Shown here: piece after piece, positions 16,910 through 56,104 of the stretch
How the letters are laid out: each line of letters begins with the position of its first letter
Position numbering within the stretch: the first letter of the stretch is position 1
NCBI GenBank assembly: GCA_018335335.1
Contig: JAGXKG010000001.1
Span: 253,600-317,599 of the forward strand
Source: Candidatus Thorarchaeota archaeon
GTDB lineage: Archaea; Asgardarchaeota; Thorarchaeia; Thorarchaeales; Thorarchaeaceae
Length of the DNA stretch: 64,000 nucleotides
Direction of reading: 5' to 3'
Made by a program: the position numbers and the translations under genes
Notes under the pieces: generated by a model
Seen by the model: the letters and a program-made list of their open reading frames with translations, nothing else
Told to the model about the DNA's origin: nothing
Databases searched by the model: none

Positions 16910-17701
16910 TTGAATGACCTAATAATTGTGAAGCTCGGCGGTTCAGTGATTACCAACAAAGGCGAATCACCCCCATCTGTCAACAACGATCGGATACATC
17001 GAATAGCACGCGAACTCGCCAATCACAATGGCCCTATGATAGCTGTGTTAGGTGGTGGGGCCCATGGTCATCAACCAGCCAGTCGCTATGGATTTGGCAA
17101 CCCTAAAACTCCAAGGCAAAAACGTTTGGCCGGTCTTCCCAAAATCCGGAACAATATGTCAATTCTTTCTTCGGAAGTAGTTGGCTCTTTGCAAGATTCG
17201 GGTCTGCCAGCTGTTGCCTTTCCACCTTTTACCTTTGCTCGTCTTAGGAATAACCACATCCAGCATTTCCCCTGTTCGTTCATAGAAAAGGCATTGAATT
17301 CCGATTTCCTCGTCGTCACTCATGGGGATGTATGTTTTGATGAAAAATTAGGAGCTTCCATATTGAGTGGAGATACGATTGTAGTATATTTGGCCAACAG
17401 ACTCAATCCAACGGGAGTTTACATCGGAACAGATGTTGATGGCGTCCATTATGAAAATCCTGATACTAATCCCAAGGCAAAAGTAATACCTGTAATACAA
17501 TCCAATGACATTGAAAAGGCCTTATCCAGCACTGGCCCATCTTCATCTGTGGATGTTACTGGTGGGATGGACAACAAAGTTAGGGAATTACTCACCATAA
17601 ATCAAAGAACAAAAATTGCCATATTCAATCTGAATATTGCTGGACGACTGTCTACTCTTCTAAAAGGTAAGACACCAATCTGTACACTCATTCAACCATG
17701 A
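16910..17701 (+). CDS. Isopentenyl phosphate kinase (amino-acid kinase family)
   Basis: 263 aa; KLGGS, VLGGGAHGH, THGD, LSGDTIVVYLAN, GTDVDGV, VDVTGGM motifs matching archaeal IPK. Confidence 0.85.
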   Translation: MNDLIIVKLGGSVITNKGESPPSVNNDRIHRIARELANHNGPMIAVLGGGAHGHQPASRYGFGNPKTPRQKRLAGLPKIRNNMSILSSEVVGSLQDSGLPAVAFPPFTFARLRNNHIQHFPCSFIEKALNSDFLVVTHGDVCFDEKLGASILSGDTIVVYLANRLNPTGVYIGTDVDGVHYENPDTNPKAKVIPVIQSNDIEKALSSTGPSSSVDVTGGMDNKVRELLTINQRTKIAIFNLNIAGRLSTLLKGKTPICTLIQP

Positions 17702-20700
17702 ACAAACTGCCTAAATTGGAAGAGATCCCTTCTTTCCAATACCTAATTGCTACATTATCTGGTATAGCATCATCATCTTCTATGATACTAGAATCTCCCA
17801 AGATACATACAACCTCATGTGTTTGACATTCATCACAAGCTGTTTCCGAAATTGAATTGGATATGCGTTTCATTCTGTTTTTTCCAGGTAATACCGCATA
17901 AGATTTGTCTCCTACACAAAAATCGAAAGGATAATGGTCCGACACAATCTCCCTTCCCCTTCTTTTCAATTCCTGCACAATAGCTTCCAAAGCTATTAAC
18001 TTGATACTTTGAAACTTCTTCGCTCCAAGCACCCAAAGACCTGGCTCCAAATTGTGTAAATTCGACTCCTTGCTCAATCTAAACAGATGACACTCCCCTG
18101 TCTCGATCATCTGGGAAAGGATTCGCATTCCTTCGCCTTTTTCCAATGGAATCGATCTTGCCCTTTTCGACTGAATGGCTGTTGTACTAATGAAACTGAG
18201 AAAATCCCCCCACTCAATTGCACCTCCAGAAACAGAAAGAAATTCCCTCAATAACCCAAACCAAATTCTTCTACCAACGCTTGTTCCCGATTTCTTGGTT
18301 GCCCCGTTGAACTGCTCCAAAGCCGACTCAATTTCGTGGCTCTTTTCCTTAGGCTCTTTCTCACCTATTTGAGAACCAGTGCACGTACTAAGCATTCTAT
18401 CAATTGAGCTCTGAAACGCAGGCACAATGGTTACCAAGTCGAATCCATCGATTTTTTCAATTCTTTCGCGAACTTTCGCTGCTGCAATGCTTCCTCTAAC
18501 TATAACATACAGCTCTTCAATTGTATTCCCCATTTTTTTCATACTTTCTTTGATTACATTGATTATTGTTTCAATAGATGGTATTCTAATCCGTTCAGGT
18601 ACTATCAAAATAGCGTTACTTCCCACAATAAAATTGGGTGTGGTTTCCGAACCATCATCTTCGAATCTTCGTATCTCATCCGACTTCTCAAGTATGTACT
18701 GCGATATTGCTGCTTCTATCGATTCGTTGGCGTTCCCCGGCACAGAGAATACAAAGCCTCCCTTAACGACAGGAATTGCTTCCCTCTGGATTATTGAGAG
18801 TGATATGAGCTCCTCGATTAGCTGCTCCCGTGTCATATCAATGTGGTCATAGTTGAGGTTCACCAACAACTCCTCCAATTGTTCTTTTGTTACAAAATCA
18901 CGAGATGCAAGATATCCGGTTACTAATCCAGATATTTCTCCTATGACATGTTCTCTTCCTTTTGATGTTCTTCCCCTTTCCACACAAACTCTCTCTTCCC
19001 CATCATGAGATACCATCATGGGAGTGTCATTGCATTCAACCCCCTCAATTATCTCTTCATCAACTCGATTGCGAATATGTGACGTAGATTCTTCCAGCCC
19101 ATATTCCGGCATCAACGTTTTGATTTCGAAGACACTCACATCTGGTAATTTGATCAAAGCATTGCCTACGGTGAGTGACTGCAAATACTCCTCCTGTCTA
19201 TCATCTAGAGAAAGATATCTTCTAGCAACCCCACTATCATACGGTAATCTAAAGGTAATTTTCGTGGAGGTATTGGCCAAAATATTCGATGATATATTGG
19301 GTCTTGTTGAAACCACCACGACACCCTGTCCAGTCGCTCTTTGAAGCATGACCATGGACTCTCCCGTTGTGACATCTGCGGCTGAACTTCTCGTGTAACT
19401 CTCGGGTACCAAATTGTAGGCCTCTTCAAGAACTACAATATGTCGAAGCCCTTCGGTTATACCTCTCTGCATGGCAGAATCAAAGACTCTTTTCACAATA
19501 ACGTTGTACAAGAGCCTCGCTGCATCCATGCCCCCAATCCGTGCTACATAGCTCAAGTCTACAATAACTCTTTCATCAAGTAGTGTTGAAATTTCCAACG
19601 TCTTTTTCCCAGGCCCAAAAACTGTAGCTAAGGGTTCCCTGAATAAGATTTGAAGCCGATTTAGCAATGCATCTCTAGTCATTTCGGAAATGTGGCCTTT
19701 AGTACCCGCAGCAAAAATCATTCGTTCAAGGGATGCCACTGTTTTCTCTTCCTCTTCTAGAACTACTTTTTCCACAGATTCTCGTAGAAGTCTTTCCATG
19801 GCGGGTGAAAGCTCTGCTGAAACACCCCTCTCGTTCAATAACTCTCTGATTATGGCGAAAGTGATATGTGCGTGTCTTTCGGGACTATCTCCTTCTGGCG
19901 CAAAAAGGTTGAGAACGAAATTATTTTCGGCACCAGGAATCAAAACATCAACGGACCCAAACCCTACCTCTCGAAGATCCGAATATTCAGAACCCTTTAC
20001 ATCGAATACTAACCATGGAATTTCCGTTTTGGCACTTAGCTCTGCAATGAGTCTCTTCACCAATGTGGTTTTCCCTGTACCTGTTGCCCCCATCACTGCT
20101 ATATGCTCTCTGAGCCAATCTTTCTTCAATCCAACCTCACTAAGACACCGAGAATTGAATACTGCCCGTCCGATTACTAACTCGTTGTTGATAGTCTCCT
20201 TTTCCGGAATAGAAAAGAATGGTACAGCCTTTCCTGTCACTACTGGCAGTTGCTGGGACGGTGTGTTGAAGTAACCAACAAGTCTCTCCAAATGTATTTT
20301 GGAGCTTTTCACAGGCCGCCTGTTCAATACTCGATAGCCGTTTCTACCTCCTAATTTTACCGATTCAAGTGAAAGATTCCCTTTTTCACCCCATATCGAT
20401 ATTAGAAGCCCCCTAACGCCTTCTTCAGCAAGCCTTAACTCAATTTGCGAGTTAGCTTGTATTGTTACGTAGATACTTGCTTCAAACCATGCATCAACAT
20501 CTCCAATTTCCTTGTACTCCTCCAGCAACCTCTCTTTCATAGCATGGTCAGAGAGTGACTCCCTCTTTTCACGCTCCTTTCTGCGAATCTTCTTCCAGTG
20601 TTTTTCCAATGCCCTTTTCTCTCTTCCAGGATTTGCGGGCTTAAATGCACAAGTCAGACTAGCATTGTAACCTTGTCTTAGAAGCCCTACTAGAAAAGTT

Positions 20701-21416
20701 CCTATCTGTGTCGCTTCTTCGTTAGGATTGATGCTCGGATTTCCAGCAACAACAATGATTTTCCTATGCGTTCCATCCCGGCTAGTTTTTTCTTGCCGCC
20801 TTGTTTCTAGATTCGGTTCACGCATGGTTTCAATAGCTTCTCTTAGTTCTCCCTCCCTCAATCTTTCTACCTCAACCGTATTGAGCGTGCTACGTAAGAT
20901 AGCTTCACATCTAGTAGATTCAATTTGGAGCTGTTGTCGCAAGCTTGTGACTGAATCTCCCCGTGCTGTTATGAATAGTCGGATGAAAGGCTCTTGGTTG
21001 ATAGTACCTACTTCATATGCCATAGACGTATAATCATCCATACCTTCACGAAGAGCAAGAAGTGCTGACACGACATACTTATGCTCTCCATTTTCGTTAA
21101 TCTTAACTGATCCAGTAACCGAATTGAGTTGAAGAACACAAGTTGCGACAATAGACCTATCCAGCTGTACAACAAGAATATCATTCTCTATCAACATCGA
21201 TATCTTCTGTGATTTGATTTTGGAACCTATTACGATACCTCCAGTAATCGGGGGAAATAGAAGAAGAAGACCTTCGACCAAGGCTCTCATAGGTACAGCT
21301 AATGGCGGCGCAACCCCTGTGATTGGCAAGACATAGGCCATTACAAAATAGAATATTGAAAATGCGGTTGAACTTGGCCATGCAATTCGTATGCACTTTA
21401 GAAACTTGACATCCAT
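17688..21416 (-). CDS. Giant membrane-anchored HerA/VirB4-like (DUF87) P-loop ATPase
   Basis: 1242 aa; two N-terminal hydrophobic helices; central Walker A IAVMGATGTGKTT and Walker B-like HIVVLEEAYNL as in HerA/VirB4/TrbE ATPases; ~450-aa C-terminal extension of unknown function. Confidence 0.6.
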   Translation of the reverse strand: MDVKFLKCIRIAWPSSTAFSIFYFVMAYVLPITGVAPPLAVPMRALVEGLLLLFPPITGGIVIGSKIKSQKISMLIENDILVVQLDRSIVATCVLQLNSVTGSVKINENGEHKYVVSALLALREGMDDYTSMAYEVGTINQEPFIRLFITARGDSVTSLRQQLQIESTRCEAILRSTLNTVEVERLREGELREAIETMREPNLETRRQEKTSRDGTHRKIIVVAGNPSINPNEEATQIGTFLVGLLRQGYNASLTCAFKPANPGREKRALEKHWKKIRRKEREKRESLSDHAMKERLLEEYKEIGDVDAWFEASIYVTIQANSQIELRLAEEGVRGLLISIWGEKGNLSLESVKLGGRNGYRVLNRRPVKSSKIHLERLVGYFNTPSQQLPVVTGKAVPFFSIPEKETINNELVIGRAVFNSRCLSEVGLKKDWLREHIAVMGATGTGKTTLVKRLIAELSAKTEIPWLVFDVKGSEYSDLREVGFGSVDVLIPGAENNFVLNLFAPEGDSPERHAHITFAIIRELLNERGVSAELSPAMERLLRESVEKVVLEEEEKTVASLERMIFAAGTKGHISEMTRDALLNRLQILFREPLATVFGPGKKTLEISTLLDERVIVDLSYVARIGGMDAARLLYNVIVKRVFDSAMQRGITEGLRHIVVLEEAYNLVPESYTRSSAADVTTGESMVMLQRATGQGVVVVSTRPNISSNILANTSTKITFRLPYDSGVARRYLSLDDRQEEYLQSLTVGNALIKLPDVSVFEIKTLMPEYGLEESTSHIRNRVDEEIIEGVECNDTPMMVSHDGEERVCVERGRTSKGREHVIGEISGLVTGYLASRDFVTKEQLEELLVNLNYDHIDMTREQLIEELISLSIIQREAIPVVKGGFVFSVPGNANESIEAAISQYILEKSDEIRRFEDDGSETTPNFIVGSNAILIVPERIRIPSIETIINVIKESMKKMGNTIEELYVIVRGSIAAAKVRERIEKIDGFDLVTIVPAFQSSIDRMLSTCTGSQIGEKEPKEKSHEIESALEQFNGATKKSGTSVGRRIWFGLLREFLSVSGGAIEWGDFLSFISTTAIQSKRARSIPLEKGEGMRILSQMIETGECHLFRLSKESNLHNLEPGLWVLGAKKFQSIKLIALEAIVQELKRRGREIVSDHYPFDFCVGDKSYAVLPGKNRMKRISNSISETACDECQTHEVVCILGDSSIIEDDDAIPDNVAIRYWKEGISSNLGSLFMVE

Positions 21417-21657
21417 GTATCAAGACACCCCACAGGCTTTCAAGTGTGTTTGCACTTCTTTCTCTCTCCGTTCTTGGTTCGAAGCTACATCTATCAGGTA
21501 ACCTGTTGAGATGTACCGTACTATGTAATATGAAGTCACCAAATAATCATGATATCAACATCTTTGCGCTAATTCCGTTTCCAGAAAAAGCATCTGCCCC
21601 TCGTTGTACGAGGTTAATAGAGCAGTGTCACAATATGAGTTGGGTTAGAATCTGGAA

Positions 21658-27983: not shown

Positions 27984-30656
27984 ATGCGAGTCAAGCTCCT
28001 GCTATCCGTTCAAATATCATGTCTTGTCCTTCTAGCTTTCGTTATGCCAGTTTCAGCCTTCTATTTTCAACTTGATTACTTCCAGACAGATCAGCTGGTT
28101 TATGAAGTGGGAGAAACCATTGAAATGGCCGCCAAGCTTACTGCAGATTTTGGAAGTGATGGTTGGTGTTATGTTTCATTTACTGTGTCTGAAGATTCAC
28201 GACAAATCTACGAAGACGCCTATTTCATTCCTCCTTCTCCCGAACCAAGAGTTCTTCAGTCTTCTTTTGTATTAACGTCCAATACCGTTTCACCAGGTAT
28301 GAATGGCAGTACTGGACATGCGATGTTTGATGTTGAAATGTATGACAAGTACACTCATGGTGAAAGTGAAACCATTCAAATCAACTTTACAAGAGGCGAG
28401 CTATTGGCTTCACCAATCAATCCACTCGAATTCGAATATGGATTGAATCATACATTTGTATTCAAATTAGGATCTAGATACAATCAGGACGTGTTTGAGG
28501 ATGACGTTCCCGTTATGGCAAATCTATATGACTCTGGCAATCGATGTGTTGGCAACTGGTTACCGTCAGTAAATGCCACCGGCCATATCCATTTCGACCT
28601 CAATAATGCAAGTCTTCCGACAGGGGATTACAACTTACGTCTAGAAACTAATGGTACTGATTCATTTGTTCCTTTCTCTAATTCATTTATTGTGTCTATT
28701 TTACCTGCAAACTCCTCACTTACTGTTCTATCTGCAGACTCATCTGTATACTGTCTATCTTCTGACGGAACACATTCCGATTCTGCAAATATAGTTGTTC
28801 AACATCTTAATGGAGAAAACAACCCAATCACTGATAGCTCACTTACATGGTCAACCGCCTTTTCAAGCGGAACAATGAACTCCCTACAGGATGGCAAATA
28901 TAACTGTTCCATTCCCTTTGAAGTTGCTCCTGGTAACTATAGCATCATTATTCATGCAACCAATCCAAGCTATACGTCTGTAAATGTGAGCTTGATAATC
29001 GAAGCTGAAACTCGCCCTATTGACTTTAATATTTCACTAAAAGATAAGGCGCTGGCAGGAAAAAGTGTTGAATTCATCTTATCTGTCCAGGATTTGTTGG
29101 CTAATGAAAACGTGGCAAACCATCCTCTTTTCTTAGAGCTAATGAACAACAACTACTCCATATCTACACCTTTGTTATATACAAACGAATCCGGGATTTT
29201 GTGTTACAACTTCTCGATTCCCCAAGAAATGTGGGGTTCAAGCTCTCTTTTCATCATCTCTAATGAATCAGCATTCTATACTAACAACAACTTCTCCCAT
29301 AGTTTCACTATCTATTATCTTCCCATCATTATAACACAAAATGTGACACAGGCTTTTTTGGATAGCGAAATAGCAATGAATACAACAGTCTTAAATCCAC
29401 TCTATATGCCCGTTTCCGAAATTCAGATTGTAGTAACCGATTGTCGAAACAATACTTTGACGACGGCTTTCACTGACCTCGAAGGCATAGCTAACCTCAG
29501 CTGGAGAGTGAACTCATCCTACTCAACTGGCCCATATGATTTTTGCTTTCACTTAGCATCTTCCCCCGCCAAGTATTCTGAAGAACGAATGTACTGGCAT
29601 ACAATCAATCTCTACCACCCACTAGTTTTCAATTTACAGAATCATTCTCTAGAAACTCTTAGGAACTCAACTTTGACCTTCTCCTTTCAAGTAGATTCTG
29701 AGAATACATATTCTACTTCCGTCGACATTCTACTAACCAACTATGATATCCGTTGCAATCTATCAATCGAAATCTCTACGAGTTCAGCGAAAAATGCAAG
29801 CTTGAAAATACCCACCAATATTTCTTTAGGCCCACACCAAATCAGTTATGAATCGCTCAACACAAGCTACAAGTTCAGAAATCCTTCCTATTTCACTTTG
29901 ATAGTAATAGAAAAAATGAATGCAAGCTGTTCGGATTTTCAAGCTACGTATAACAATGAACTATCATTTGACCTGCTAACGGTTGATTGGGATAATACAA
30001 GCATATCTACAGTGTATGTTACTGCAGAAATTGGAGGGGTACGGATTGCAACCAACATCTTGGCAAACCTGACTCAAACTCCCAACGTTCAAATCAGCTT
30101 GCCTTTGCGTCTTCCTCCGGGACAGCATCAGCTTTTGTTAAATGTTTGTCACCCTTATCGAGTCAATCAGACTATATCTACACAGATAGTCATATGGATG
30201 GAGACACGTATTACAATTACTACACTCGAAGTTCAAGAATTATATGCATCATCTCCTGCTATAACTCAGGATACTCTACGCAATATCTCAGATGGATCTA
30301 TCACGCGCCCTCCACCAATCTTTCTCAATGGCTCCACATCAACTACCCCTTCAGTTGCCCGAGACACCTCTCGACTCAATTGTCCTAAGCTCAGCTCAGG
30401 AACCAATAGTTGTTCTACTGTGGATGCAAAATCCAAAACCTCATCATCCGGGAATGGCCAGACTGTTCTAAGCCTCAGAGATTTTAATGAAGATTGTTCA
30501 TGGTTTTCTGCAATTACTTGTTCTACTGTTCTTGAAGTACACCCAAATGAGATTATGCCCCATTCCGCTTTCTCAGGACCTGTGACGACCGTGTCTTTCA
30601 GAAAATGGGAGTTATTCCTGATTTTCGTAGTTATTCGCCGAACCAACTCATCATGA
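27984..30656 (+). CDS. Large secreted surface glycoprotein (3' end uncertain; real gene probably ends before ~30266)
   Basis: 890-aa ORF; signal peptide MRVKLLLSVQISCLVLLAFVMPVSA; very dense N-x-S/T sequons; last ~130 codons are low-complexity and antisense to korA, so likely read-through. Confidence 0.5.
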   Translation: MRVKLLLSVQISCLVLLAFVMPVSAFYFQLDYFQTDQLVYEVGETIEMAAKLTADFGSDGWCYVSFTVSEDSRQIYEDAYFIPPSPEPRVLQSSFVLTSNTVSPGMNGSTGHAMFDVEMYDKYTHGESETIQINFTRGELLASPINPLEFEYGLNHTFVFKLGSRYNQDVFEDDVPVMANLYDSGNRCVGNWLPSVNATGHIHFDLNNASLPTGDYNLRLETNGTDSFVPFSNSFIVSILPANSSLTVLSADSSVYCLSSDGTHSDSANIVVQHLNGENNPITDSSLTWSTAFSSGTMNSLQDGKYNCSIPFEVAPGNYSIIIHATNPSYTSVNVSLIIEAETRPIDFNISLKDKALAGKSVEFILSVQDLLANENVANHPLFLELMNNNYSISTPLLYTNESGILCYNFSIPQEMWGSSSLFIISNESAFYTNNNFSHSFTIYYLPIIITQNVTQAFLDSEIAMNTTVLNPLYMPVSEIQIVVTDCRNNTLTTAFTDLEGIANLSWRVNSSYSTGPYDFCFHLASSPAKYSEERMYWHTINLYHPLVFNLQNHSLETLRNSTLTFSFQVDSENTYSTSVDILLTNYDIRCNLSIEISTSSAKNASLKIPTNISLGPHQISYESLNTSYKFRNPSYFTLIVIEKMNASCSDFQATYNNELSFDLLTVDWDNTSISTVYVTAEIGGVRIATNILANLTQTPNVQISLPLRLPPGQHQLLLNVCHPYRVNQTISTQIVIWMETRITITTLEVQELYASSPAITQDTLRNISDGSITRPPPIFLNGSTSTTPSVARDTSRLNCPKLSSGTNSCSTVDAKSKTSSSGNGQTVLSLRDFNEDCSWFSAITCSTVLEVHPNEIMPHSAFSGPVTTVSFRKWELFLIFVVIRRTNSS

Positions 30657-31844: not shown

Positions 31845-33068
31845 TTGAACCTTCAAAATTCTTTGAATGTAATGCCAGTAGATTTTGTTGAAGATGAACT
31901 TGGTAGACATACAGTATTCAAGTCGGAGCAATATCTATCAATAGATTATGTACCAGAGACCTTGCCTCATCGAGAGAATGAGCTTAGGACACTAGCTCGG
32001 AGCTTCAAAACCCTGATAACCTCACCTGGGAAAACAAGCCACAAATTCATAATTGAAGGTCCTGTTGGTACTGGTAAAACCGCCGTTACAAAACGCTTTG
32101 CGGAGCAAATGCTTCGTGCTGCGAGAAGAAGAAACATTCATCTCCACAAAATACATGTAAATTGCAGAGTAAACAAGAGCAAATACTTGGTCTATCTGCG
32201 AATCCTCAAGGAATTCAAACCCAAATTCCCTCGGAGAGGGCATTCCCCCGAGGAGCTTCTTCAACTGATAATGGATGTTCTTGATTCTGAAGATAGGTAC
32301 CTTCTGCTTATCCTTGACGAGCTTGACTATTTCATAACACAAAAGGGTGGAAGCATAGTCTACGATTTAACGCGTTTGAATGACAATCGCCTCAATTCTC
32401 CCCAAAGGCTTTCAATGATTGGCATCGGGCGGGACATACCTCTAGATGAATCCGCATTCGATTCTAGTACATTGAGTACTTTGCAGCGCAATATTCTACG
32501 GTTTGAGAAATATAACTCAGAAGCACTTTACGACATCGTTAGTCAGCGGTCAGAAATGGCCTTCAAAGACAATACTGTAATGGAAGAAACCCTTCAGGTT
32601 ATTTCTGACATAGCTTCTGAACGTGGTGATGCCAGATACGCCATAGAGATTCTTTGGCGTGCTGGAAAACAGGCTGATACAGAGCGTTCTGATGTTGTGA
32701 TACCGGATTTTGCACGAAAGGCTAAAGCTGATACACACCCGGAGCTAAGAATGGAGGTTTTCTCAACTCTGCCACTACAGAATAAGCTTCTATTGTTGGC
32801 TGCAGCACGCCAGTTGAAAGAAGTACGAAGTGCATATGTAACAATGGGTGAAGTTGAAGAGATGTATCGAACTATTTGTGAAGAATATGATGAAGCCCCC
32901 CGTGCGCATACTCAGATTTGGGAATGGGTTCAGGATTTGAATGCACATGGCGTGATTGACACAAAACGATCCGGTGAAGGACAACGTGGGCAGACAACAC
33001 TCATTGGTCTCTCAGATGTGCCTGCAGGAATGCTGGAAGCATTTTTGCTCGACTTCTTGAATGAATAG
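31845..33068 (+). CDS. orc1/cdc6: Orc1/Cdc6 replication initiator
   Basis: 407 aa; AAA+ Walker A GPVGTGKT, Walker B LILDELD, sensor motifs, C-terminal winged helix. Confidence 0.9.
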   Translation: MNLQNSLNVMPVDFVEDELGRHTVFKSEQYLSIDYVPETLPHRENELRTLARSFKTLITSPGKTSHKFIIEGPVGTGKTAVTKRFAEQMLRAARRRNIHLHKIHVNCRVNKSKYLVYLRILKEFKPKFPRRGHSPEELLQLIMDVLDSEDRYLLLILDELDYFITQKGGSIVYDLTRLNDNRLNSPQRLSMIGIGRDIPLDESAFDSSTLSTLQRNILRFEKYNSEALYDIVSQRSEMAFKDNTVMEETLQVISDIASERGDARYAIEILWRAGKQADTERSDVVIPDFARKAKADTHPELRMEVFSTLPLQNKLLLLAAARQLKEVRSAYVTMGEVEEMYRTICEEYDEAPRAHTQIWEWVQDLNAHGVIDTKRSGEGQRGQTTLIGLSDVPAGMLEAFLLDFLNE

Positions 33069-37295: not shown

Positions 37296-39368
37296 TTGAT
37301 GGCAACATCCAAAGATGGTATCCAAGAGCGCTTCGAAGAGTTTCTACGAACATACAAGAATGAACACGGGAACTTGGTATACTGGCGCCAGATTCAACAG
37401 ATGTCCATCAATGACGAAACGAGTCTAAGTATTGACTTTGAGGACCTCTCAACTTTCGATAATGTGTTCATGGTCGAAGCTGCCGAGAACCCTACTTCCT
37501 TCTTAGAAAAAGCGAACAACGCACTCAAATCGGTTTTAAGAGTGGAGGACCCGGATTATGTACAAAGACTCCCTGAAGGAACAATACGCGCGAGAGTTGT
37601 AAACTATCCCGAGCACGTTGCTCTTAGGGCTTTGCGATCTAAACATATTGGTCGCCTCATACAGATAAGTGGTCTTATGATGCGTGCGAGTGAAGTCAAG
37701 CCGCTTCTTGTAGATGCTGTGTTCAAATGTAGGATATGTGAGGAGGAAATTTCGCAAAGACAAGAAGATGGACGCTATACAGAGCCCCCTATTTGCCCAA
37801 TTTGTGGAAAAAAAACCTCGATGAGATTACTTCCGAAGAAATCCAGTTTCATGGATTGGCAAAAAGTCCGGGTTCAAGAATCCCCCGAGGAACTACCACC
37901 AGGGCAAATGCCACGGTCGGTAGATGTTGTTCTTGAAGGTGATATCGTGGATTTATCGCGCCCCGGGGATTTGGTGCGGATAACGGGAATTCTTCAGACT
38001 TCTCCCGACTTTTCCAGACGTCGAGGCCGTCTGGCAACATTCAATGTCCACATTGATGCTGTTGGTATCGAAATTGCAGAAAAAGAATATGAACAAGTAG
38101 ATATCACTGAAGAAGATGAAAGGCGAATCAGGGAATTGGCTGAGGATCCCTATGTTCACGAGAGAATCTATGCCTCAATCGCTCCTTCTATCCATGGCCA
38201 TGAACGCATCAAAGAATCAATAGCCCTGCTCCTATTTGGCGGCGTTAGTAAGACCCTGCCTGACGGAACACGATTACGAGGCAAATCAAATATTCTGATG
38301 ATTGGTGACCCGGGTACTGGCAAGAGCCAGATATTGAAATTTGTTTCAAGCTTGGCGTCACGAAGTCTTTATACATCAGGAAAGGGTACAAGCGCAGCTG
38401 GACTCACGGCTGCTGTTGTTCATGATACTGATACTGGTGCTATGACGTTGGAAGCAGGAGCATTGGTACTAGCAGATCAAGGCATTGCTTGTATTGATGA
38501 GTTTGACAAAATGGACCCGAATGATAGAACTGCAATTCACGAGGCGATGGAGCAGCACACCGTAAGTATCGCTAAAGCTGGCATCGTTGCCACTCTGAAT
38601 GCTCGAACCTCAATACTGGCTGCTGCAAATCCTTCCCTTGGTAGATATGAGCCCCAGCGTTCGGTTCAAGACAACATCAAGTTACCATTCACCATCCTTT
38701 CGAGGTTCGACTTGTTGTGGATTCTTATAGACCGCGTAGAAGCAGAAAAGGATCGTGAGCTTGCGCAGTTCATCTTGGGAATGCACCAACTCAAGCAAAC
38801 AAAAAGTCAAGAAGGCGTACCTCCCATCGATCCGGAGTTTCTTCGCAAATACATTGGCTATGCAAATAGATATGTAATTCCGAGATTGACTGCTGAGGCT
38901 GCGGAGGTCATTGAAGATTTTTACGTTGGTCTTCGAAAGGGCGCAGAAGGTGGAGGCCAACCGGTTCCAATTACAGCACGCCAGCTGGAATCACTTGTTC
39001 GCCTAGCCGAGGCCAGAGCAAGAATGGGCTTGAGGTCCGAAGTAACAAAAGAAGACGCTCAAGCCGCTGTGCGACTCATGGAGGAATCCCTTCGCATGGT
39101 AGCTCTGGATGGAACGGGCAGAATTGACATTGATAAACTTGTTTCAACGATGAGTGCCGCACAGCGGAGCTCTTCTGATAAGATTCTTGATGCTATGAAA
39201 GAATTGGAAACTGAAGATTCATCAACTGTTAGCGAAGAAGCGCTACTTCAGAGAGTCTCAGATATGGGTGTTTCACGGGAACGAGCGGTTGAAGTAATAG
39301 AGAAACTTCTCGCTGAGGGGCTTATCTATAGCCCCAGCGAAGGCAAGATTGAGCGAATAAAGGGCTGA
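37296..39368 (+). CDS. mcm: MCM replicative helicase
   Basis: 690 aa; Zn finger C-x2-C...C-x2-C, Walker A GDPGTGKSQ, Walker B IDEFDKM, arginine finger, C-terminal wH; no intein. Confidence 0.95.
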   Translation: MMATSKDGIQERFEEFLRTYKNEHGNLVYWRQIQQMSINDETSLSIDFEDLSTFDNVFMVEAAENPTSFLEKANNALKSVLRVEDPDYVQRLPEGTIRARVVNYPEHVALRALRSKHIGRLIQISGLMMRASEVKPLLVDAVFKCRICEEEISQRQEDGRYTEPPICPICGKKTSMRLLPKKSSFMDWQKVRVQESPEELPPGQMPRSVDVVLEGDIVDLSRPGDLVRITGILQTSPDFSRRRGRLATFNVHIDAVGIEIAEKEYEQVDITEEDERRIRELAEDPYVHERIYASIAPSIHGHERIKESIALLLFGGVSKTLPDGTRLRGKSNILMIGDPGTGKSQILKFVSSLASRSLYTSGKGTSAAGLTAAVVHDTDTGAMTLEAGALVLADQGIACIDEFDKMDPNDRTAIHEAMEQHTVSIAKAGIVATLNARTSILAAANPSLGRYEPQRSVQDNIKLPFTILSRFDLLWILIDRVEAEKDRELAQFILGMHQLKQTKSQEGVPPIDPEFLRKYIGYANRYVIPRLTAEAAEVIEDFYVGLRKGAEGGGQPVPITARQLESLVRLAEARARMGLRSEVTKEDAQAAVRLMEESLRMVALDGTGRIDIDKLVSTMSAAQRSSSDKILDAMKELETEDSSTVSEEALLQRVSDMGVSRERAVEVIEKLLAEGLIYSPSEGKIERIKG

Positions 39369-50953: not shown

Positions 50954-52114
50954 ATGGATGAATCCCTTGATCGCGCTTTATCTGATTTAGTCGAGGAGAT
51001 AGAGCAGATCGAGAAAACCCGCAGAGCCTTCGGAGAGGTCATGAATCAGATAAAGAATGATATTGATTTAGCCAGTTTTCCTTCGGTTTCTGCTCGTCTC
51101 CCTGAGACGGTTCTAATCAATACTGTGAAACCAACTAGTCTTTCAGGACTCAAGGTTGCAGGTGTTGATGGTGGGTTAGTTCGAAAACGGTTTCGTTCAA
51201 TGGATCTTCTTTTCACTCGAGGAATTGGTGTAGTATTTGGGTTTGGATTCGAAGAAGGCCCAAATGTTGAATTCTTTCCCCAGCCATTTCCAAATCCAGA
51301 AGTTAGGCCTCTCACGCAAAAGATATCAACTTCAGAACTGGATCAAATTGCCTCACTCGAGCGTATAAGAAGTGAGCTACGGGTTGCCATTGGTCTAATT
51401 GAAGAGTATCATGCAGATCTTATTCTTATGGATGGCTCCCTCGTTTTTCATCCTCGAGACCGCCCAAACCGTAAATCCATGGCTTATTCAAAATTCCAAG
51501 AAGTTGCTGCGCTTTATCGTCAGCTCTTCCATAAGAGTAGTAAGAAGCGAACAATTCTACTGGGAATCGTTAAAGATAGTAGATCAACACGGATTGTAAA
51601 GACTCTTGGAGAAATCCTTCCTCATCTTCTCAAAGATCCTGCTCTCTTTGAGCTCATGGAAGGAGTAGACTACAGATGGTTGCTTAAAATCTCAAGAGAT
51701 TGTGACCTCCTTGATACGTTTCTCGAAGAAGGAGAACGCACTTTTGCCTTTCCGCTATCAGCAGAAATAGCGAACGAAAGGAAAGATAACAATCACGCCT
51801 TATCCTCTTGGACTTCTTCGATTTGGGTCACGTATTTGAAAGCAGCAAGGAATGACTTGCCTATCCGAGTTGAGATTCTTCTGAATGAAAATGATGATTT
51901 GAAGAAGATGGAAAAAGCACTATCTGCTATTTTGCCGCTTTCGTGGCAGCATCCTGAATATGGTGTACCCACACCTATCCTAGAGGCCGATGCCCGAGCA
52001 AGAATAAGCAAATCGGAAACTGATTTGATAGTTGACCGTCTCATTGCGCTATCGGGCCTTGCCTACTCTACACTCAACAAACGCCGCTCTCGAAATCCCT
52101 TTGGAGGTTCATAA
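50954..52114 (+). CDS. nurA: NurA 5'-3' nuclease
   Basis: 386 aa; VAGVDGG N-terminal catalytic motif region, RNase-H-like fold signature; immediately upstream of herA. Confidence 0.65.
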   Translation: MDESLDRALSDLVEEIEQIEKTRRAFGEVMNQIKNDIDLASFPSVSARLPETVLINTVKPTSLSGLKVAGVDGGLVRKRFRSMDLLFTRGIGVVFGFGFEEGPNVEFFPQPFPNPEVRPLTQKISTSELDQIASLERIRSELRVAIGLIEEYHADLILMDGSLVFHPRDRPNRKSMAYSKFQEVAALYRQLFHKSSKKRTILLGIVKDSRSTRIVKTLGEILPHLLKDPALFELMEGVDYRWLLKISRDCDLLDTFLEEGERTFAFPLSAEIANERKDNNHALSSWTSSIWVTYLKAARNDLPIRVEILLNENDDLKKMEKALSAILPLSWQHPEYGVPTPILEADARARISKSETDLIVDRLIALSGLAYSTLNKRRSRNPFGGS

Positions 52115-52115
52115 G

Positions 52116-53627
52116 ATGGAATATGCTCCCATAGAAACAAAACTTGGAACCGTTGTTTGTACAAACAATGGCCCTAGTGTTAATGCTTTTGATTTTGTTC
52201 TTGAGGACGAAACACCATCGGTGCGGCGGGGCGAATTCGTATCTTCTGTTGTGCAGGAAGGCGTGACGGTAATTGCTCGTGTACACGATTTGGTACGAAC
52301 AAATCGTTATTTCGAACATGCTGAGGCTGTGCGAGAATATCAATCACGCGGCCAATCGCTCCGCTCCATGTTTCCAACTGATCGCTGGCAATATACAATA
52401 GCTCAGACACAGGTAATCGGATTCTGGGCTGATAACCGGGCAATTCGTCCGTATTCAGCAGTTCCTCCCGGAGCCTCGGTCACAAGAGTAGATGAAGAAA
52501 TATTGAACGCCTTTCTTAAATTGGACAAAGAAAACGGTCTTAATCTCGGAACACTTGGGCATCATGATCTCAAATTCGTACCATCGATGAACCGCCTTTT
52601 ATCAAAACATCTTGCAATCTTGGCAATGAGCGGGGCCGGGAAGTCGTATTTTGTTTCAGTTCTGTTAGAGGAGATACTCTCACGAACCAAAGAAGAAGGA
52701 AGACTTGCTGTTGTAGTTGTTGATGTACATGGTGAATATACGTATCTGAAGGAAATGAAGGGAGATGATCTTGGCAAACCTGATTTAGATCTCGACATTG
52801 AGCATATTCGAGCATCTCACTTCCAAATCCCGGTTATTTCGCTTAGTGCTGATGCTATTGGGGCTCTTGTTGCGGGAATGAGCTCTGTTCAACGTCGCGA
52901 ACTGCGCAAAGTCATTTCTAGGATGCGGAGTCATTCGAAATCCGGGTACACACTCAGCGATGTCATTACCACCGTACGAGAAGACGATAATATCAATACG
53001 AATACCAAGGACGCTCTCATCGGATGGCTGCTCAATCTAGATGATACCGCCCTTTTTGGCAAAGAACCCACTCCCAGAATTGAGAAAGCAATCCGCCCTG
53101 GTAAACTCCTACTAGTCGACTTGAGTGACTTCGTGAGCCTGAAAAAGAAGCAAATCCTCGTATCCTATTTGGCTAATGAGCTTCTCTATCTTAGACGGTC
53201 CGGAAGAATACCACCGTTTCTCCTTGTCTTGGAAGAAGCCCACCAGTTCTGCCCAGAGAGTCGAAGAGAAATTGCTATACCAAAGGATCGCATAGAGACT
53301 ATCGCCAGGGAGGGACGAAAATTCTTTGCCTTGCTTTGCCTGATTTCTCAGCGACCTGTAAAACTGTCAACCACGGTTCTAAGTCAGTGTACAAATCAGG
53401 CAATATTCCGCTGCACTAATCCTTATGACTTACAGCATATTGGGCGTAGCAGCGAGGGGATAGATCAATCGTCCCTCGACGCGATAACCTCTCTGGAAGT
53501 TGGAGAATCTCTCATGGTAGGAGAGGTTGTGAGTGTTCCAACGTTTGTGAAGATAAGACATCGTCGCTTCGAACCGAAAGGAAAAATTACCAACCTTCTA
53601 GATGCTGTACGCGAAGCAGAGCGCTAA
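52116..53627 (+). CDS. herA: HerA bipolar DNA helicase
   Basis: 503 aa from MEYAPIETK (GGAGGT RBS 8 nt upstream; ATG 1 nt after nurA stop); Walker A MSGAGKSYF, Walker B LLVLEEAHQF. Confidence 0.85.
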   Translation: MEYAPIETKLGTVVCTNNGPSVNAFDFVLEDETPSVRRGEFVSSVVQEGVTVIARVHDLVRTNRYFEHAEAVREYQSRGQSLRSMFPTDRWQYTIAQTQVIGFWADNRAIRPYSAVPPGASVTRVDEEILNAFLKLDKENGLNLGTLGHHDLKFVPSMNRLLSKHLAILAMSGAGKSYFVSVLLEEILSRTKEEGRLAVVVVDVHGEYTYLKEMKGDDLGKPDLDLDIEHIRASHFQIPVISLSADAIGALVAGMSSVQRRELRKVISRMRSHSKSGYTLSDVITTVREDDNINTNTKDALIGWLLNLDDTALFGKEPTPRIEKAIRPGKLLLVDLSDFVSLKKKQILVSYLANELLYLRRSGRIPPFLLVLEEAHQFCPESRREIAIPKDRIETIAREGRKFFALLCLISQRPVKLSTTVLSQCTNQAIFRCTNPYDLQHIGRSSEGIDQSSLDAITSLEVGESLMVGEVVSVPTFVKIRHRRFEPKGKITNLLDAVREAER

Positions 53628-53657
53628 CGCTGAAACTTCTTGAGACCCCTTCTACTG

Positions 53658-53942
53658 TCAGGGTGTCAAGTCCATGACGATTTCATCAACCGCGGTCCAT
53701 GAGATTTTCTTTAATCCATGTTGACCGGGCTCGTGGCGGCAATCTAAAAGACCGGCTTCTTGAAGGATTTTTATCTGTGCACTTGCATTGGCCTCAGTAC
53801 CGCCAAGATGTTTTGCAACCCGGGTAACATCTTGTTCTTTCTGTAAGAGGAATTGCAGTATTTCTAGGCGTGTGCCTGAAGAAAGTGCGCTTGCTATTCT
53901 TAGGATGTCGTCGTCGTTGGCTATTTCTAGTGTTTCTGGCAC
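53658..53942 (-). CDS. ArsR/SmtB-family transcriptional regulator
   Basis: 94 aa; TRLEILQFLLQKEQDVTRVAKHLGGTEANASAQIKILQEAGLL HTH. Confidence 0.6.
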   Translation of the reverse strand: MPETLEIANDDDILRIASALSSGTRLEILQFLLQKEQDVTRVAKHLGGTEANASAQIKILQEAGLLDCRHEPGQHGLKKISWTAVDEIVMDLTP

Positions 53943-54079
53943 TTATCGCACCTCACGTGAATCTGGCCAGTTGTTCAAGCATGTCTTTATTATAGTTGTT
54001 GTTTGCAAATGGTTTGGTATCGAGTACACCTATGAAGCCATGTTAAGCCTTTATAGCGAACAATCAAGGATTAGTTTGA

Positions 54080-56104
54080 GTGCGACCCTCCATGGATAAT
54101 GAAAGCGAGTTCATCATGGGCTTTGATATCCTTCCATTTCATAGTCCTCGCTCTCGAACTCCTGCGAAATATGCTTGCGTCATCATGCGAGAAGGGGCAG
54201 TACTCAATGAATATGACGAGATATCTCGCCGCTCACTGCTAAATCTGGTTAATGAAATCAGTCCCAAATGGCTTTGTACAGATAACATCTTCGAGATTAT
54301 CCCTGATAGCAAGTCGGTGATACATCTAATAGAAGATCTCCCCCCTACGACCAAATTGATTCAAGTTACGGGGGTCCCTCCCCGCCAAGTATCATTGGCA
54401 CGCTTAGCTAGGCGGCATGATCTCCCTTTCTCCGGGAAACCATCTCCATTGGAAGCGGCTAGGATTGCTGCCCAACTGGCATCTCAGGGTGTTGGATACA
54501 GCTTAGAGTGTTTCAGTGCACAGACAGAAATTCAGGTTGTGAGAGGTCGTCGACCAGGGCGGGGCGGACAGAGTGCAAATCGATTCAGACGAAGAGTACA
54601 ATCGATGATTCAACAAATGACGAGGGAGATTGAGTCTAAACTCAAGAGAGCTGAAATCGAGTACGATATCAGCATAAGAAAGGCTGATTTCGGGTATGCT
54701 AGTTCAAGGATAGTTGCCTATGCACCATTACACATTGTCCGTGGTATTGTGGATTTAAAGCGCAGTGGCGATTTCAAAGTACTCGTAGAACCAATTCGGA
54801 AACAAACGGAATTCGTGCCTCTAGAACCAACGCAGGCTCCCAGAAAAACAAAAACTCAGTATTTTATTCTTGGTATCGATCCCGGTACGACAGCTGCAAT
54901 CTGTCTACTGACATTACACGGAAAGGTTCATTTCCTTGAAAGCAAGAAGGCTCTAACGCGTGCTGATATCATCAGGATGGCCTATTCCAAAGGCACCCCC
55001 GTGATGGTTGCGAGTGATGTAACCCCTGTTCCCAATATGGTAAAGAAAATTTCAAGCACAGTGAACGCTGATCTATTCACACCGAATAGCAATATCCCTG
55101 TTGCAGAAAAGAACGAAATAGCACGTGAGTTTGGTGATGGTGTTAACATCAGCAATGCCCATGAGAGAGACGCTCTAACAGCGGCTGTATATGCATATCG
55201 AAGTATTGTTCCGAAGTTGCGACAAATCGATCGCAAAGTTAGAGAAGAGCGTCTGGATGTAGACCGAGACCGTCTAAAAGCGATGGTTATTCGCGGCAGC
55301 CCCATGAACGAGGCGATTGCACGGCTCACAAAAGAAGCCGAAGAGGCGACCCCTTCGGAACCAAAAGAAGTCGAAGAGATGCCGGAAGAGACAATCGAGT
55401 CTCTCAGGGCGCGCTATAACGAACTCAAAGATGAAAATGAAATCCTTGAACAAAAGATTGAAGATTTGAATCGGTTAGTAGACTACCTTCGATTCAAAGA
55501 GAACGAATTATCTCACAGCCTCGAAATCATCAGTAAACAGAACTATTGGAAAGTCAAACGAGATCGAAAAGTGGCCAAGAAGAATTCCGAGATTAAGCGA
55601 TCACGAGAGAGGATTCACAGTCTCGAGGATCAGATTGAGGATCTTGAGAACCTCCTATCTAAGCTACGAGGAGTTAAACGTCTTGAAATGCGCGGAGATA
55701 TGCTTACGGTTAAGAGGATTGAAAAATTTACACAGGAAAGCATTCAGAGATATATGCGGGAAGTAGCCCCCCTAAAGAAGGGGGATGTTGTTCTCTTTGA
55801 TGATGCTTCTGGTGCAGGACCGCAAACAGCTCATATCTTAGCAGAGAAGGGGATTCGGGCAGTGATTGTAGATACGTCGTTATCTCATTTAGCCGAGAAT
55901 GAATTAATCAAAGCTGAAATCCCTGTTATTAGGGCGGATGAAGTTAAGCTGAGACGAATTGATGAATTTGCGTTTATTGACCGTGGTAGATTTGAAAAGA
56001 ATATGTCGAATTTCAAAGAGGAAGTCCACGAGAAAGCCCGACAGAAACGCGAAGATCAACTTGTGGAAATGGTAGAACGATATCGCCGTGAATCATCCCA
56101 TTAA
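54080..56104 (+). CDS. DUF460/COG2433-like protein: RNase-H-fold (YqgF/RuvC-like) domain plus long coiled-coil
   Basis: 674 aa; YFILGIDPGTTAAICLL resembles YqgF/RuvC GxDxGT; central ~150-aa heptad-rich coiled-coil; KH-like C-terminus. Confidence 0.45.
   Translation: MRPSMDNESEFIMGFDILPFHSPRSRTPAKYACVIMREGAVLNEYDEISRRSLLNLVNEISPKWLCTDNIFEIIPDSKSVIHLIEDLPPTTKLIQVTGVPPRQVSLARLARRHDLPFSGKPSPLEAARIAAQLASQGVGYSLECFSAQTEIQVVRGRRPGRGGQSANRFRRRVQSMIQQMTREIESKLKRAEIEYDISIRKADFGYASSRIVAYAPLHIVRGIVDLKRSGDFKVLVEPIRKQTEFVPLEPTQAPRKTKTQYFILGIDPGTTAAICLLTLHGKVHFLESKKALTRADIIRMAYSKGTPVMVASDVTPVPNMVKKISSTVNADLFTPNSNIPVAEKNEIAREFGDGVNISNAHERDALTAAVYAYRSIVPKLRQIDRKVREERLDVDRDRLKAMVIRGSPMNEAIARLTKEAEEATPSEPKEVEEMPEETIESLRARYNELKDENEILEQKIEDLNRLVDYLRFKENELSHSLEIISKQNYWKVKRDRKVAKKNSEIKRSRERIHSLEDQIEDLENLLSKLRGVKRLEMRGDMLTVKRIEKFTQESIQRYMREVAPLKKGDVVLFDDASGAGPQTAHILAEKGIRAVIVDTSLSHLAENELIKAEIPVIRADEVKLRRIDEFAFIDRGRFEKNMSNFKEEVHEKARQKREDQLVEMVERYRRESSH

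Follow-up and report, generated by a model that had tools for sequence, protein, structure and literature searches.

What does a thorarchaeon do with an ATPase of 1242 residues that is anchored in the membrane and built like the motors of known DNA-transfer systems? The gene in question lies on the minus strand of the 64,000-nucleotide stretch of DNA analysed here, which we call the window (contig JAGXKG010000001.1 of the Candidatus Thorarchaeota assembly GCA_018335335.1, positions 253,600 to 317,599). Our answer is tentative, possible rather than probable: the ATPase may be the motor of a chromosomally fixed surface apparatus, resembling the Ced system and type IV secretion systems (T4SS), that moves a macromolecule across the membrane, with DNA as the favoured substrate. 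The family may mark an undescribed cell-surface transfer apparatus of Asgard archaea.

Of all known prokaryotes, the Asgard archaea are most closely related to eukaryotes, and to our knowledge almost nothing is known of how they exchange DNA or make contact with partner cells. If our interpretation is true, it offers a concrete, testable candidate for cell-cell transfer of DNA or protein in these organisms, and domesticated conjugation-like machinery extends beyond Thermoproteota. Canonical type-IV-filament (TFF) systems are largely absent from Asgard genomes, according to a 2026 survey (bioRxiv 10.64898/2026.04.22.720090), and in the searchable literature we found no description of this protein family or of a Ced/T4SS-like system in Asgard archaea. 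Motors of the CedD/VirB4 type are already known; the novelty lies in the module fused to such a motor here and in its set of partners.

Architecture of the ATPase and its C-terminal module

The reading frame runs uninterrupted from an ATG at 21416 to a stop at 17688-17690; read on the plus strand, the interval is riddled with stops, and that alternative was ruled out. A protein from a Thorarchaeota metagenome-assembled genome (MAG), P0001, annotated as "DUF87 domain-containing protein" on a 448,733-bp contig, is 100% identical to the predicted product. A chance open reading frame (ORF) is excluded because more than 100 full-length homologs exist, at 38-83% identity. In what follows, residue invariance and segment positions were judged in a 42-member family alignment, and the ATPase was classified by profile scores, hhalign and Foldseek ranks.

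An earlier sequence-only reading of the window had assigned the protein to the HerA/FtsK/VirB4 superfamily by its Walker motifs. Both motifs are present as it quoted them, Walker A (IAVMGATGTGKTT) at residues 439-451 and Walker B (HIVVLEEAYNL) at 659-669. G443, T445-T450, L663, E664, E665 and A666 are invariant, as are about 90 further residues of the ATPase domain, and to judge from this conservation the ATPase therefore looks catalytically competent. The superfamily assignment is borne out by a match to the Pfam DUF87 model (PF01935; E 2.3e-14, 54 bits vs a cutoff of 23) and by a Foldseek probability of 1.0 to VirB4, HerA and TrwB, all of them P-loop pumping ATPases.

To which branch of the superfamily does the core belong? 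Among curated NCBIfam models the best match is CedD (NF053655), with 61.7 bits over residues 408-761. CedD is also the top model in six of seven diverse family members, at 41-97 bits; because its equivalog cutoff is 600 bits, we conclude that the protein is not a CedD ortholog. The curated models for HerA, CedB and VirB4 all give 37 bits or less, and every one of these scores is far under its cutoff. The VirB4/CagE model TIGR00929, for example, gives 21.5 bits vs a cutoff of 643, which places the protein outside VirB4 as a sequence family. CedB matches are weak (24-37 bits vs a cutoff of 700) and in some members, such as P0093, extend into the N-terminal domain. Searches of PDB and plasmid sequences returned only HerA-clade or DUF87 ATPase-domain matches, the plasmid hits (tblastn) being generic ones of 25-27% identity.

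Fold comparison gave a complementary picture. With the model of residues 1-790, the top Foldseek matches were full-length VirB4/TrwK proteins of the R388 T4SS (PDB 8rtd, 7o41-7o43; E 5e-18 to 1e-12), in alignments of ~800-830 columns that comprise the N-terminal domain and the ATPase searched jointly. HerA came next (E 7e-12, ~600 columns), followed by TrwB/VirD4 (E 2e-9, ~430 columns); TM-scores for these matches are only ~0.3. By these profile and fold ranks the core does not fall with canonical HerA, the outcome that the earlier reading had named as fatal to its proposal: its best curated profile is CedD and its best fold VirB4/TrwK. The description "VirB4-like" holds for architecture and fold and fails for sequence-family membership, the core being of the HerA clade by profile. 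In short, the protein is HerA-clade by sequence and VirB4/CedD-like by architecture, and belongs to no curated family. The same situation has been described for CedB and CedD, which have HerA-clade ATPase domains and N-terminal domains resembling that of VirB4 (PMC11868833).

A canonical herA was said to lie elsewhere in the window, and it does, directly after nurA, with a DUF87 match and a weak HAS-barrel match. Our protein is a distinct paralog of this NurA-linked HerA, as had been proposed: identity is 24% and confined to the ATPase domain, over which hhalign aligns the family profile with the window's HerA at 95.8% probability (E 7e-9). Relative to canonical HerA (PDB 4d2i), with which it shares a homologous ATPase core, it lacks a HAS-barrel match and a NurA partner, differs in the N-terminal domain, and has in addition a membrane anchor and a C-terminal module of 470 residues. 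Its direct neighbours are genes for isopentenyl-phosphate kinase (IPK) and an immunoglobulin-like (Ig-like) protein.

The N-terminal anchor recognised in the first reading is a conserved two-helix hairpin, supported by hydropathy, the homolog alignment and the structure model. Two hydrophobic helices span approximately residues 17-41 and 39-64 (Kyte-Doolittle 1.8-1.9); in the structure model they comprise residues 3-33 and 44-68. The great majority of the 42 homologs have both hydrophobic segments in the same columns of the alignment; in a few, only one exceeds the threshold, and P0043 is N-terminally truncated. Basic residues flank the hairpin on both sides, and E48, at the start of helix 2, is invariant. 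The hairpin is therefore a membrane anchor rather than the mere signal peptide that would have undone the proposal, and both termini of the protein are probably cytoplasmic. Similar anchors occur in CedB and CedD and in VirB3-VirB4 fusions, to which the hairpin is analogous.

Between hairpin and motor lies an alpha/beta domain for which a Pfam search of residues 72-400 gave no match. With it, the protein shows the order of parts that characterises CedD (SiRe_1715) of Saccharolobus islandicus: transmembrane segment, N-terminal domain, VirB4-like in CedD and putatively so here, and C-terminal HerA-clade ATPase (PMC11868833). Both genes are chromosomal and lineage-conserved rather than plasmid-borne. 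The two proteins differ in size (527 residues in CedD), in the N-terminal domain, here (~330 residues) about twice as long as CedD's, in the 470-residue C-terminal module, which CedD lacks, and in phylum, Thermoproteota as against Asgard archaea. VirB4 has no significant sequence-profile similarity to our protein, which carries the extra C-terminal module and whose gene is chromosomal rather than on a mobile element. CedB and TedB, the ATPases of the archaeal Ced and Ted systems, are likewise membrane-associated HerA-clade motors, belonging to domesticated T4SS-like DNA-transfer systems (PMC9905601).

The C-terminal ~450 residues had been described as lacking recognisable motifs. It is true that the last ~470 residues have no sequence match in Pfam (for this protein and 14 further members), NCBIfam or PDB; the region is nevertheless conserved, and residues 818-1226 are modelled as four folded domains (predicted local distance difference test score, pLDDT, ~90), in the order winged helix, alpha/beta, winged helix, alpha/beta. 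Nor does the protein end in the acidic tail that was claimed: EDDDAIPD occupies residues 1212-1219, and 23 residues still follow. A profile search of 1.84 billion representative proteins gave 24 matches, all of them family members or fragments except P0129, a 937-residue relative in which just domains one and two are present, and a viral fold library gave nothing significant. The module is thus novel by sequence and confined to this family, a clean case of lineage-restricted invention on an ancient motor.

The linker that joins the module to the ATPase is poorly conserved (9% identity, net charge about -7). Winged-helix-like domain 1, also present in the distant P0129, gives Foldseek matches to RTP, MarR, LmrR and cullin winged-helix domains. 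In the alpha/beta domain that follows, R974-G975-S976 and A1000-F1001 are invariant in Thorarchaeia; P0129 has the domain but not the RGS motif. A second disordered linker leads to winged-helix-like domain 2, with invariant W1052, W1069, F1075, P1090, G1096, R1113 and G1126-L1127-W1128 and conserved T/Q/S/K/R residues in its putative recognition helix. Both this domain and the terminal one are absent from the lineage of P0129 and P0130. The terminal domain carries a cysteine cluster (C1167, C1194-x2-C1197, C1204); the most divergent member, P0119, lacks D1165 and three of the four cysteines, and the histidine of the domain is lost there too. All four domains are net acidic family-wide, at about -5 to -6 each.

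Fold matches for the module are weak but coherent. They include the winged helices of RTP, MarR and LmrR and the restriction-endonuclease folds of FokI, BspD6I and EcoO109I, the latter for the terminal domain at E 0.02-0.1; overall the top matches are CARF-nuclease proteins, Cdn1 (E 3e-4), Can2 and VC1899. We considered the terminal domain as a PD-(D/E)xK nuclease and rejected the idea, no catalytic motif being conserved and D1165 alone being near-invariant. We treat the module as one for recognition or regulation, which might bind DNA, and not as a nuclease.

Conserved neighbours and distribution

Roughly 104 database clusters contain full-length members (~1250 residues, at the identities given above), after which the scores fall abruptly to E 1e-13. 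In GTDB species-representative genomes we found 79 loci in ~75 genomes, nearly all labelled Thorarchaeota, one locus being on a closed 2.58-Mb chromosome. A metagenome scan added Thorarchaeia-type loci only, and the viral contigs searched held no relatives. The gene is a lineage-wide chromosomal one, neither cargo of a mobile element nor part of a defence island.

About 24 kb around the gene is syntenic across Thorarchaeia, and plain conservation of neighbours therefore says little by itself. Two observations say more: the constant adjacency of the Ig-like gene, described below, and a distant lineage represented by P0129 and P0130 (GC 30%, an Arf-family GTPase nearby), in which the ATPase is 26-29% identical to ours. 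None of the housekeeping genes around it is shared with Thorarchaeia, and even so the five-gene set is found again (E 1e-100 to 9e-9): ATPase, Ig-like surface protein, T2SSE-family ATPase, a small pilin-like protein and a divergent paralog of the transcription factor TFB (TFIIB). Immediately upstream of the ATPase lies a divergent Ig-like protein of ~648 residues, with signal peptide and transmembrane anchor (E 3e-20), and ~7 kb away are, in this order, the TFB-like protein (48% identity, E 1e-100), the T2SSE-family ATPase (33%, E 2e-73) and a 69-residue protein (39%, E 9e-9). In this lineage the TFB gene (L087, 187-1143) and the T2SSE gene (1127-2692) overlap by 17 nucleotides, which implies co-transcription. 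The gene set is thus conserved in two deeply diverged lineages. As a separate observation, a 114-residue PRC-barrel protein is encoded directly downstream of the Ig-like gene of L087 (7556-7900, minus strand); we detected no counterpart in the window.

The Ig-like protein has Pfam Big_3_5, Big_1 and MG4 matches, an N-terminal signal or transmembrane segment, a C-terminal transmembrane anchor and a basic tail. By tblastn its gene was detected in 74 of the 79 loci and is adjacent to the ATPase gene in all 74. The adjacency holds in four rearranged loci (L024, L065, L066 and L069) in which other blocks have moved. On the other flank of the module, at 27984-30656 on the plus strand, lies a second large Ig/MG-domain protein with an N-terminal signal peptide. 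These two genes evolve faster than any others of the region (their orthologs are 29-35% identical), which befits proteins exposed at the surface.

The smallest partner resembles Flp or type IV pilins. A variable leader is followed by the near-invariant G|GPLVEE ([KR]G|[GS]PL[VI]EE), with glycine at -1 and glutamate at +5, and by a hydrophobic helix of ~22 residues; the near-invariant string reads GGPLVEESLLLG[IL]AVVT[VI]SIVIAVILQATGWAQ[DE]V. The protein is ~72% identical across Thorarchaeia genomes whose giant ATPase is only ~41% identical. Counterparts lie at L001 7316-7546, L003 7377-7577, L004 7295-7501 and L087 2714-2923. The Flp_Fap model (PF04964) matches below its cutoff (19.4 bits, E 9e-4, vs 32.2 bits), and in the distant homolog only. 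We saw neither a prepilin peptidase nor a platform protein near the gene.

The mini-pilin gene is downstream of that for the T2SSE-family ATPase. Models of TadA, FlaI and VirB11 give the latter protein similar scores, and it aligns with TrwD/VirB11; in its homologue search, the matches listed were filled by Thorarchaeia orthologs. The TFB paralog (60.5 bits vs the TFB cutoff of 384) always precedes the T2SSE-family ATPase. TFB paralogs do not usually share an operon with genes for a secretion ATPase and a pilin, and the arrangement brings to mind the control of ups and ced by TFB3 in Sulfolobales.

Outside the family, the closest relative found, P0105, adjoins a TraG/VirD4-like gene. P0106, an 890-residue DUF87 protein (L005, 7025-13459), sits in a bacterial Band_7 - TIR - DUF87 - Endonuclease_NS_2 cluster that resembles a defence island; we set aside P0106 and P0107 as guides to context, since this TIR-DUF87-nuclease island is unrelated, and P0131, on a short contig, was uninformative. 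Metagenome contigs L129-L140 (for instance L133, 9806-11926) encode a separate family of soluble DUF87 ATPases of 650-710 residues. It shares the motifs IPWxxFDxK and SSELSPAME with our family, and has no transmembrane segment and a distinct helical N-terminus (MNEFEKEWIEETRE...).

Four MAGs hold a second, different copy of the gene (L063, L070, L077 and L078, beside full-length copies L035, L060, L022 and L018). All the second copies are on short contigs; where flanking sequence exists (L070, L077 and L078) they have their own Ig-like gene, and in L077 a pilin gene as well. Either these bins mix strains or the genomes carry a true second module.

Candidate functions of the motor

How might these parts work together? 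In the reading that we favour, the hairpin would hold the motor at the cytoplasmic face of the membrane. The putatively VirB4-like N-terminal domain and the HerA-clade ATPase would form that motor, probably as a hexamer, and the flexible acidic linker would carry the four-domain module, which most likely recognises a substrate or partner. The motor would serve the five-gene module, cooperating physically with its products, and the whole would transport a macromolecule, with DNA the favoured cargo, at cell-cell or cell-surface contacts. This proposal draws on the CedD-like architecture, the VirB4/TrwK fold, the CedD profile, the invariant ATPase residues, the TraG/VirD4-like neighbour of P0105, the recurrence of the gene set, the prepilin-like motif of the mini-pilin and a parallel in Sulfolobales, which combine Ups pili, Ced ATPases and the TFB paralog TFB3 (PMC9905601). 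Saccharolobus islandicus needs CedD to import DNA (PMC11868833). Chromosomal location, lineage-wide occurrence and absence from viral contigs are in keeping with a domesticated system such as Ced, and the R388 T4SS offers a further likeness, a T2SSE/VirB11-family ATPase being encoded near our gene too.

A bolder version, which we regard as rather unlikely, is that Thorarchaeia and the related AT-rich lineage possess a minimal, chromosomally fixed Ced/T4SS-like machine for DNA exchange, the Asgard counterpart of the Ups + Ced + TFB3 combination of Sulfolobales. VirB3, VirB4 and a recognition or processing module would be fused in one polypeptide of 1250 residues, with the fused module replacing a coupling protein or relaxase; a VirB11/TadA-like ATPase, an Flp-like mini-pilin, an Ig-like adhesin and a dedicated TFB paralog would complete the machine.

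Several results weigh against a DNA-transfer motor. The curated-model scores for CedD, CedB and VirB4 are far below their cutoffs, and the family profile, compared with TrwK by hhalign, yields a non-significant probability of 0.7%. Evidence for the linkage of the gene set comes chiefly from one distant lineage (two genomes) and the four rearranged loci. The 64-kb window and the conserved flanks contain no VirB6/CedA-like polytopic protein and no two-helix VirB2-like pilin, and with no polytopic membrane protein there is no local VirB6/CedA channel or PilC/TadB platform. We found no CedA, CedA1 or CedB gene near the ATPase gene, no CedA/TedA channel or VirB2-like pilin of the CedA1/TedC type in its neighbourhood, and no gene for VirB6, B8, B9 or B10 with it; of the partners expected for a VirB4, only the fused VirB3-like hairpin, the T2SSE-family ATPase and a one-helix Flp-like pilin are at hand. 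The C-terminal module has weak fold matches (best E 3e-4, TM <0.2) and no conserved nuclease motif, the third strand having S1172-Y-V where an acidic-x-Lys would be sought. Finally, its winged-helix-like and alpha/beta domains are acidic, which speaks against a non-specific binding of DNA. This acidity and the lack of a channel protein are the chief weak points of the proposal, and they keep two alternatives alive.

In the first, the ATPase handles no DNA and drives a pilus, an adhesin or a protein-secretion system: with the T2SSE-family ATPase it would extract or assemble the mini-pilin, or else export the Ig-like protein and anchor it. We consider this unlikely, though the invariable adjacency of the Ig-like gene and the co-conservation of mini-pilin and T2SSE-family ATPase speak for it. 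VirB4 acts in pilus biogenesis, and the role envisaged would resemble its action as a pilin dislocase with VirB11; no PilC/TadB-like platform is encoded close by, which leaves room for a different membrane motor in that role. The acidic winged-helix domains would then be protein-interaction modules, and the protein-binding winged-helix folds of cullin and Vps25 are among the fold matches. Those matches also include DNA-binding winged-helix proteins and nuclease folds, however; the putative recognition helix of winged-helix domain 2 keeps its T/Q/S/K/R residues; and CedD, CedB and HerA, the characterised proteins closest to it by profile, are DNA-handling motors.

The second alternative, distinctly improbable in our view, is an analogue of FtsK/SpoIIIE, a membrane-anchored pump for double-stranded DNA that would clear or segregate the chromosome at division, its C-terminal winged helices acting like FtsK gamma. 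FtsK belongs to the same superfamily, and its succession of membrane anchor, linker or N-terminal domain, motor and C-terminal winged-helix-like domains is paralleled in our protein, whose gene moreover keeps one conserved chromosomal position, ~12 kb from Orc1/Cdc6 and with MCM also in the window. The N-terminal domains differ, however, FtsK having no VirB4-like one, and the FtsK_SpoIIIE model (PF01580) reaches 17.8 bits, under its 24-bit cutoff, over the P-loop only. VirB4, HerA and TrwB appear among the 50 best fold matches, whereas FtsK does not. The winged-helix domains are acidic and without sequence relation to FtsK gamma, the second is absent in the distant lineage, and this reading gives no reason why the gene should stay linked to those for a surface protein, a pilin and a secretion ATPase.

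Distribution and architecture make the two remaining readings unlikely. That the protein is a HerA-type anti-phage defence ATPase, with its CARF-like and nuclease-like C-terminal domains as sensor and effector, is suggested by weak PADLOC matches to mad8 (E 4.5e-15) and many defence HerA models, by Cdn1, Can2 and VC1899 at the head of the C-terminal fold matches, and by the place of P0106 in its TIR-DUF87-nuclease island. We rejected this reading on distribution and hold it to be very improbable: in every Thorarchaeia genome sampled the gene occupies a single position among housekeeping genes, not variable islands; the fold matches are weak, no nuclease motif is conserved and P0119 has lost the Cys, His and Asp residues of the terminal domain; and the listed defence HerA proteins have neither a membrane anchor nor a VirB4-like N-terminal domain. 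Barely credible is an enlarged repair-HerA paralog acting in DNA end resection, because, although the core aligns with the genome's HerA, the protein is membrane-anchored, resembles HerA in the ATPase domain only, has no significant HAS-barrel match and has no NurA, Mre11 or Rad50 neighbour, the NurA-HerA pair being elsewhere in the window.

Feature coordinates, upstream region and wider window

Table 1. Features of the ATPase gene, its neighbours and other genes of the window (positions in the window; residues of the encoded protein)
Feature	Position	Strand	Remarks
CedD/VirB4-like membrane-anchored ATPase gene, 1242 aa	17688..21416	minus	complete ORF; family-specific C-terminal module
Two-helix membrane hairpin, aa 1-68	21213..21416	minus	hydropathy, alignment, modelled helices
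N-terminal alpha/beta domain, aa 72-400 (~330 aa)	20217..21203	minus	putative VirB4-like N-terminal-domain fold
HerA-clade (DUF87) P-loop ATPase domain, aa 405-768	19113..20204	minus	Pfam, NCBIfam, hhalign
Walker A, GATGTGKTT, aa 443-451	20064..20090	minus	invariant
Walker B, HIVVLEEA, aa 659-666	19419..19442	minus	Glu-Glu in place of usual Asp-Glu
Acidic, predicted-disordered linker, aa 769-816	18969..19112	minus	pLDDT <50
Winged-helix-like domain 1, aa 818-894	18735..18965	minus	H-H-H-E-E topology, pLDDT ~90
Alpha/beta (Rossmann/CARF-like) domain, aa 896-1013	18378..18731	minus	alignment, model, Foldseek
Winged-helix-like domain 2, aa 1046-1131	18024..18281	minus	alignment, model
Terminal alpha/beta domain, aa 1132-1226	17739..18023	minus	weak restriction-endonuclease-like fold matches, Cys cluster
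Divergent intergenic region, ATPase gene / Ig-like gene	21417..21657		TATA-like box and upstream ORF element in most Thorarchaeia loci
Ig-like-repeat surface protein, 666 aa	21658..23658	plus	divergently transcribed partner of the ATPase gene
Flp/type-IV-like mini-pilin, ~68 aa	23977..24183 (to 24204)	minus	leader and hydrophobic-helix motif
T2SSE-family (TadA/FlaI/VirB11-like) ATPase, 556 aa	24380..26050	minus	N-terminal Cys-rich segment
Divergent TFB (TFIIB) paralog, 341 aa	26211..27236	minus	upstream of T2SSE-family ATPase
Orc1/Cdc6	31845-33068	plus	
MCM	37296-39368	plus	
NurA	50954-52114	plus	
Canonical HerA	52032/52116-53627	plus	DUF87 and weak HAS-barrel match
DUF460 protein, 674 aa	54080-56104	plus	follows NurA-HerA pair

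Upstream of the ATPase start, most Thorarchaeia loci (for example L016, L017, L026, L036, L039, L040, L061 and L079) have a conserved TATA-like box, GGTTTTTA[TA]TCTCCTATAG. It stands ~27-30 nucleotides ahead of GGGG[AT]GTTC[AT]TATG, a Shine-Dalgarno-like sequence plus ATG, which opens an upstream ORF of 8-25 codons ~85 nucleotides before the real start. Its peptide is conserved, with the forms MLNEGTMVRF..., MPRTGTMVRFW, MANTDTMVRF and MSNSSTRVWFD, and variation at third codon positions suggests that it is coding. In the window's own clade (the window and L008) the ATG is lost, and the element is degenerate in the intergenic region.

At its other end the ATPase gene overlaps convergently, by 14 nucleotides, the 3' end of the isopentenyl-phosphate kinase gene (16910-17701, plus strand). 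The gene content is that of an archaeon: among the neighbours are this kinase, archaeal in type, TFB and a uS10 of the kind that eukaryotes and archaea have, and the window also holds Orc1/Cdc6, MCM and the NurA-HerA pair. Among the ORFs scanned in the region 50954-56104, which holds NurA and HerA, none encodes Mre11 or Rad50. Orc1/Cdc6 and MCM lie 10-18 kb from the ATPase gene, and Cdc6 is found at about -11.6 kb in many Thorarchaeia loci; the module thus sits in a region rich in replication genes, possibly close to an origin.

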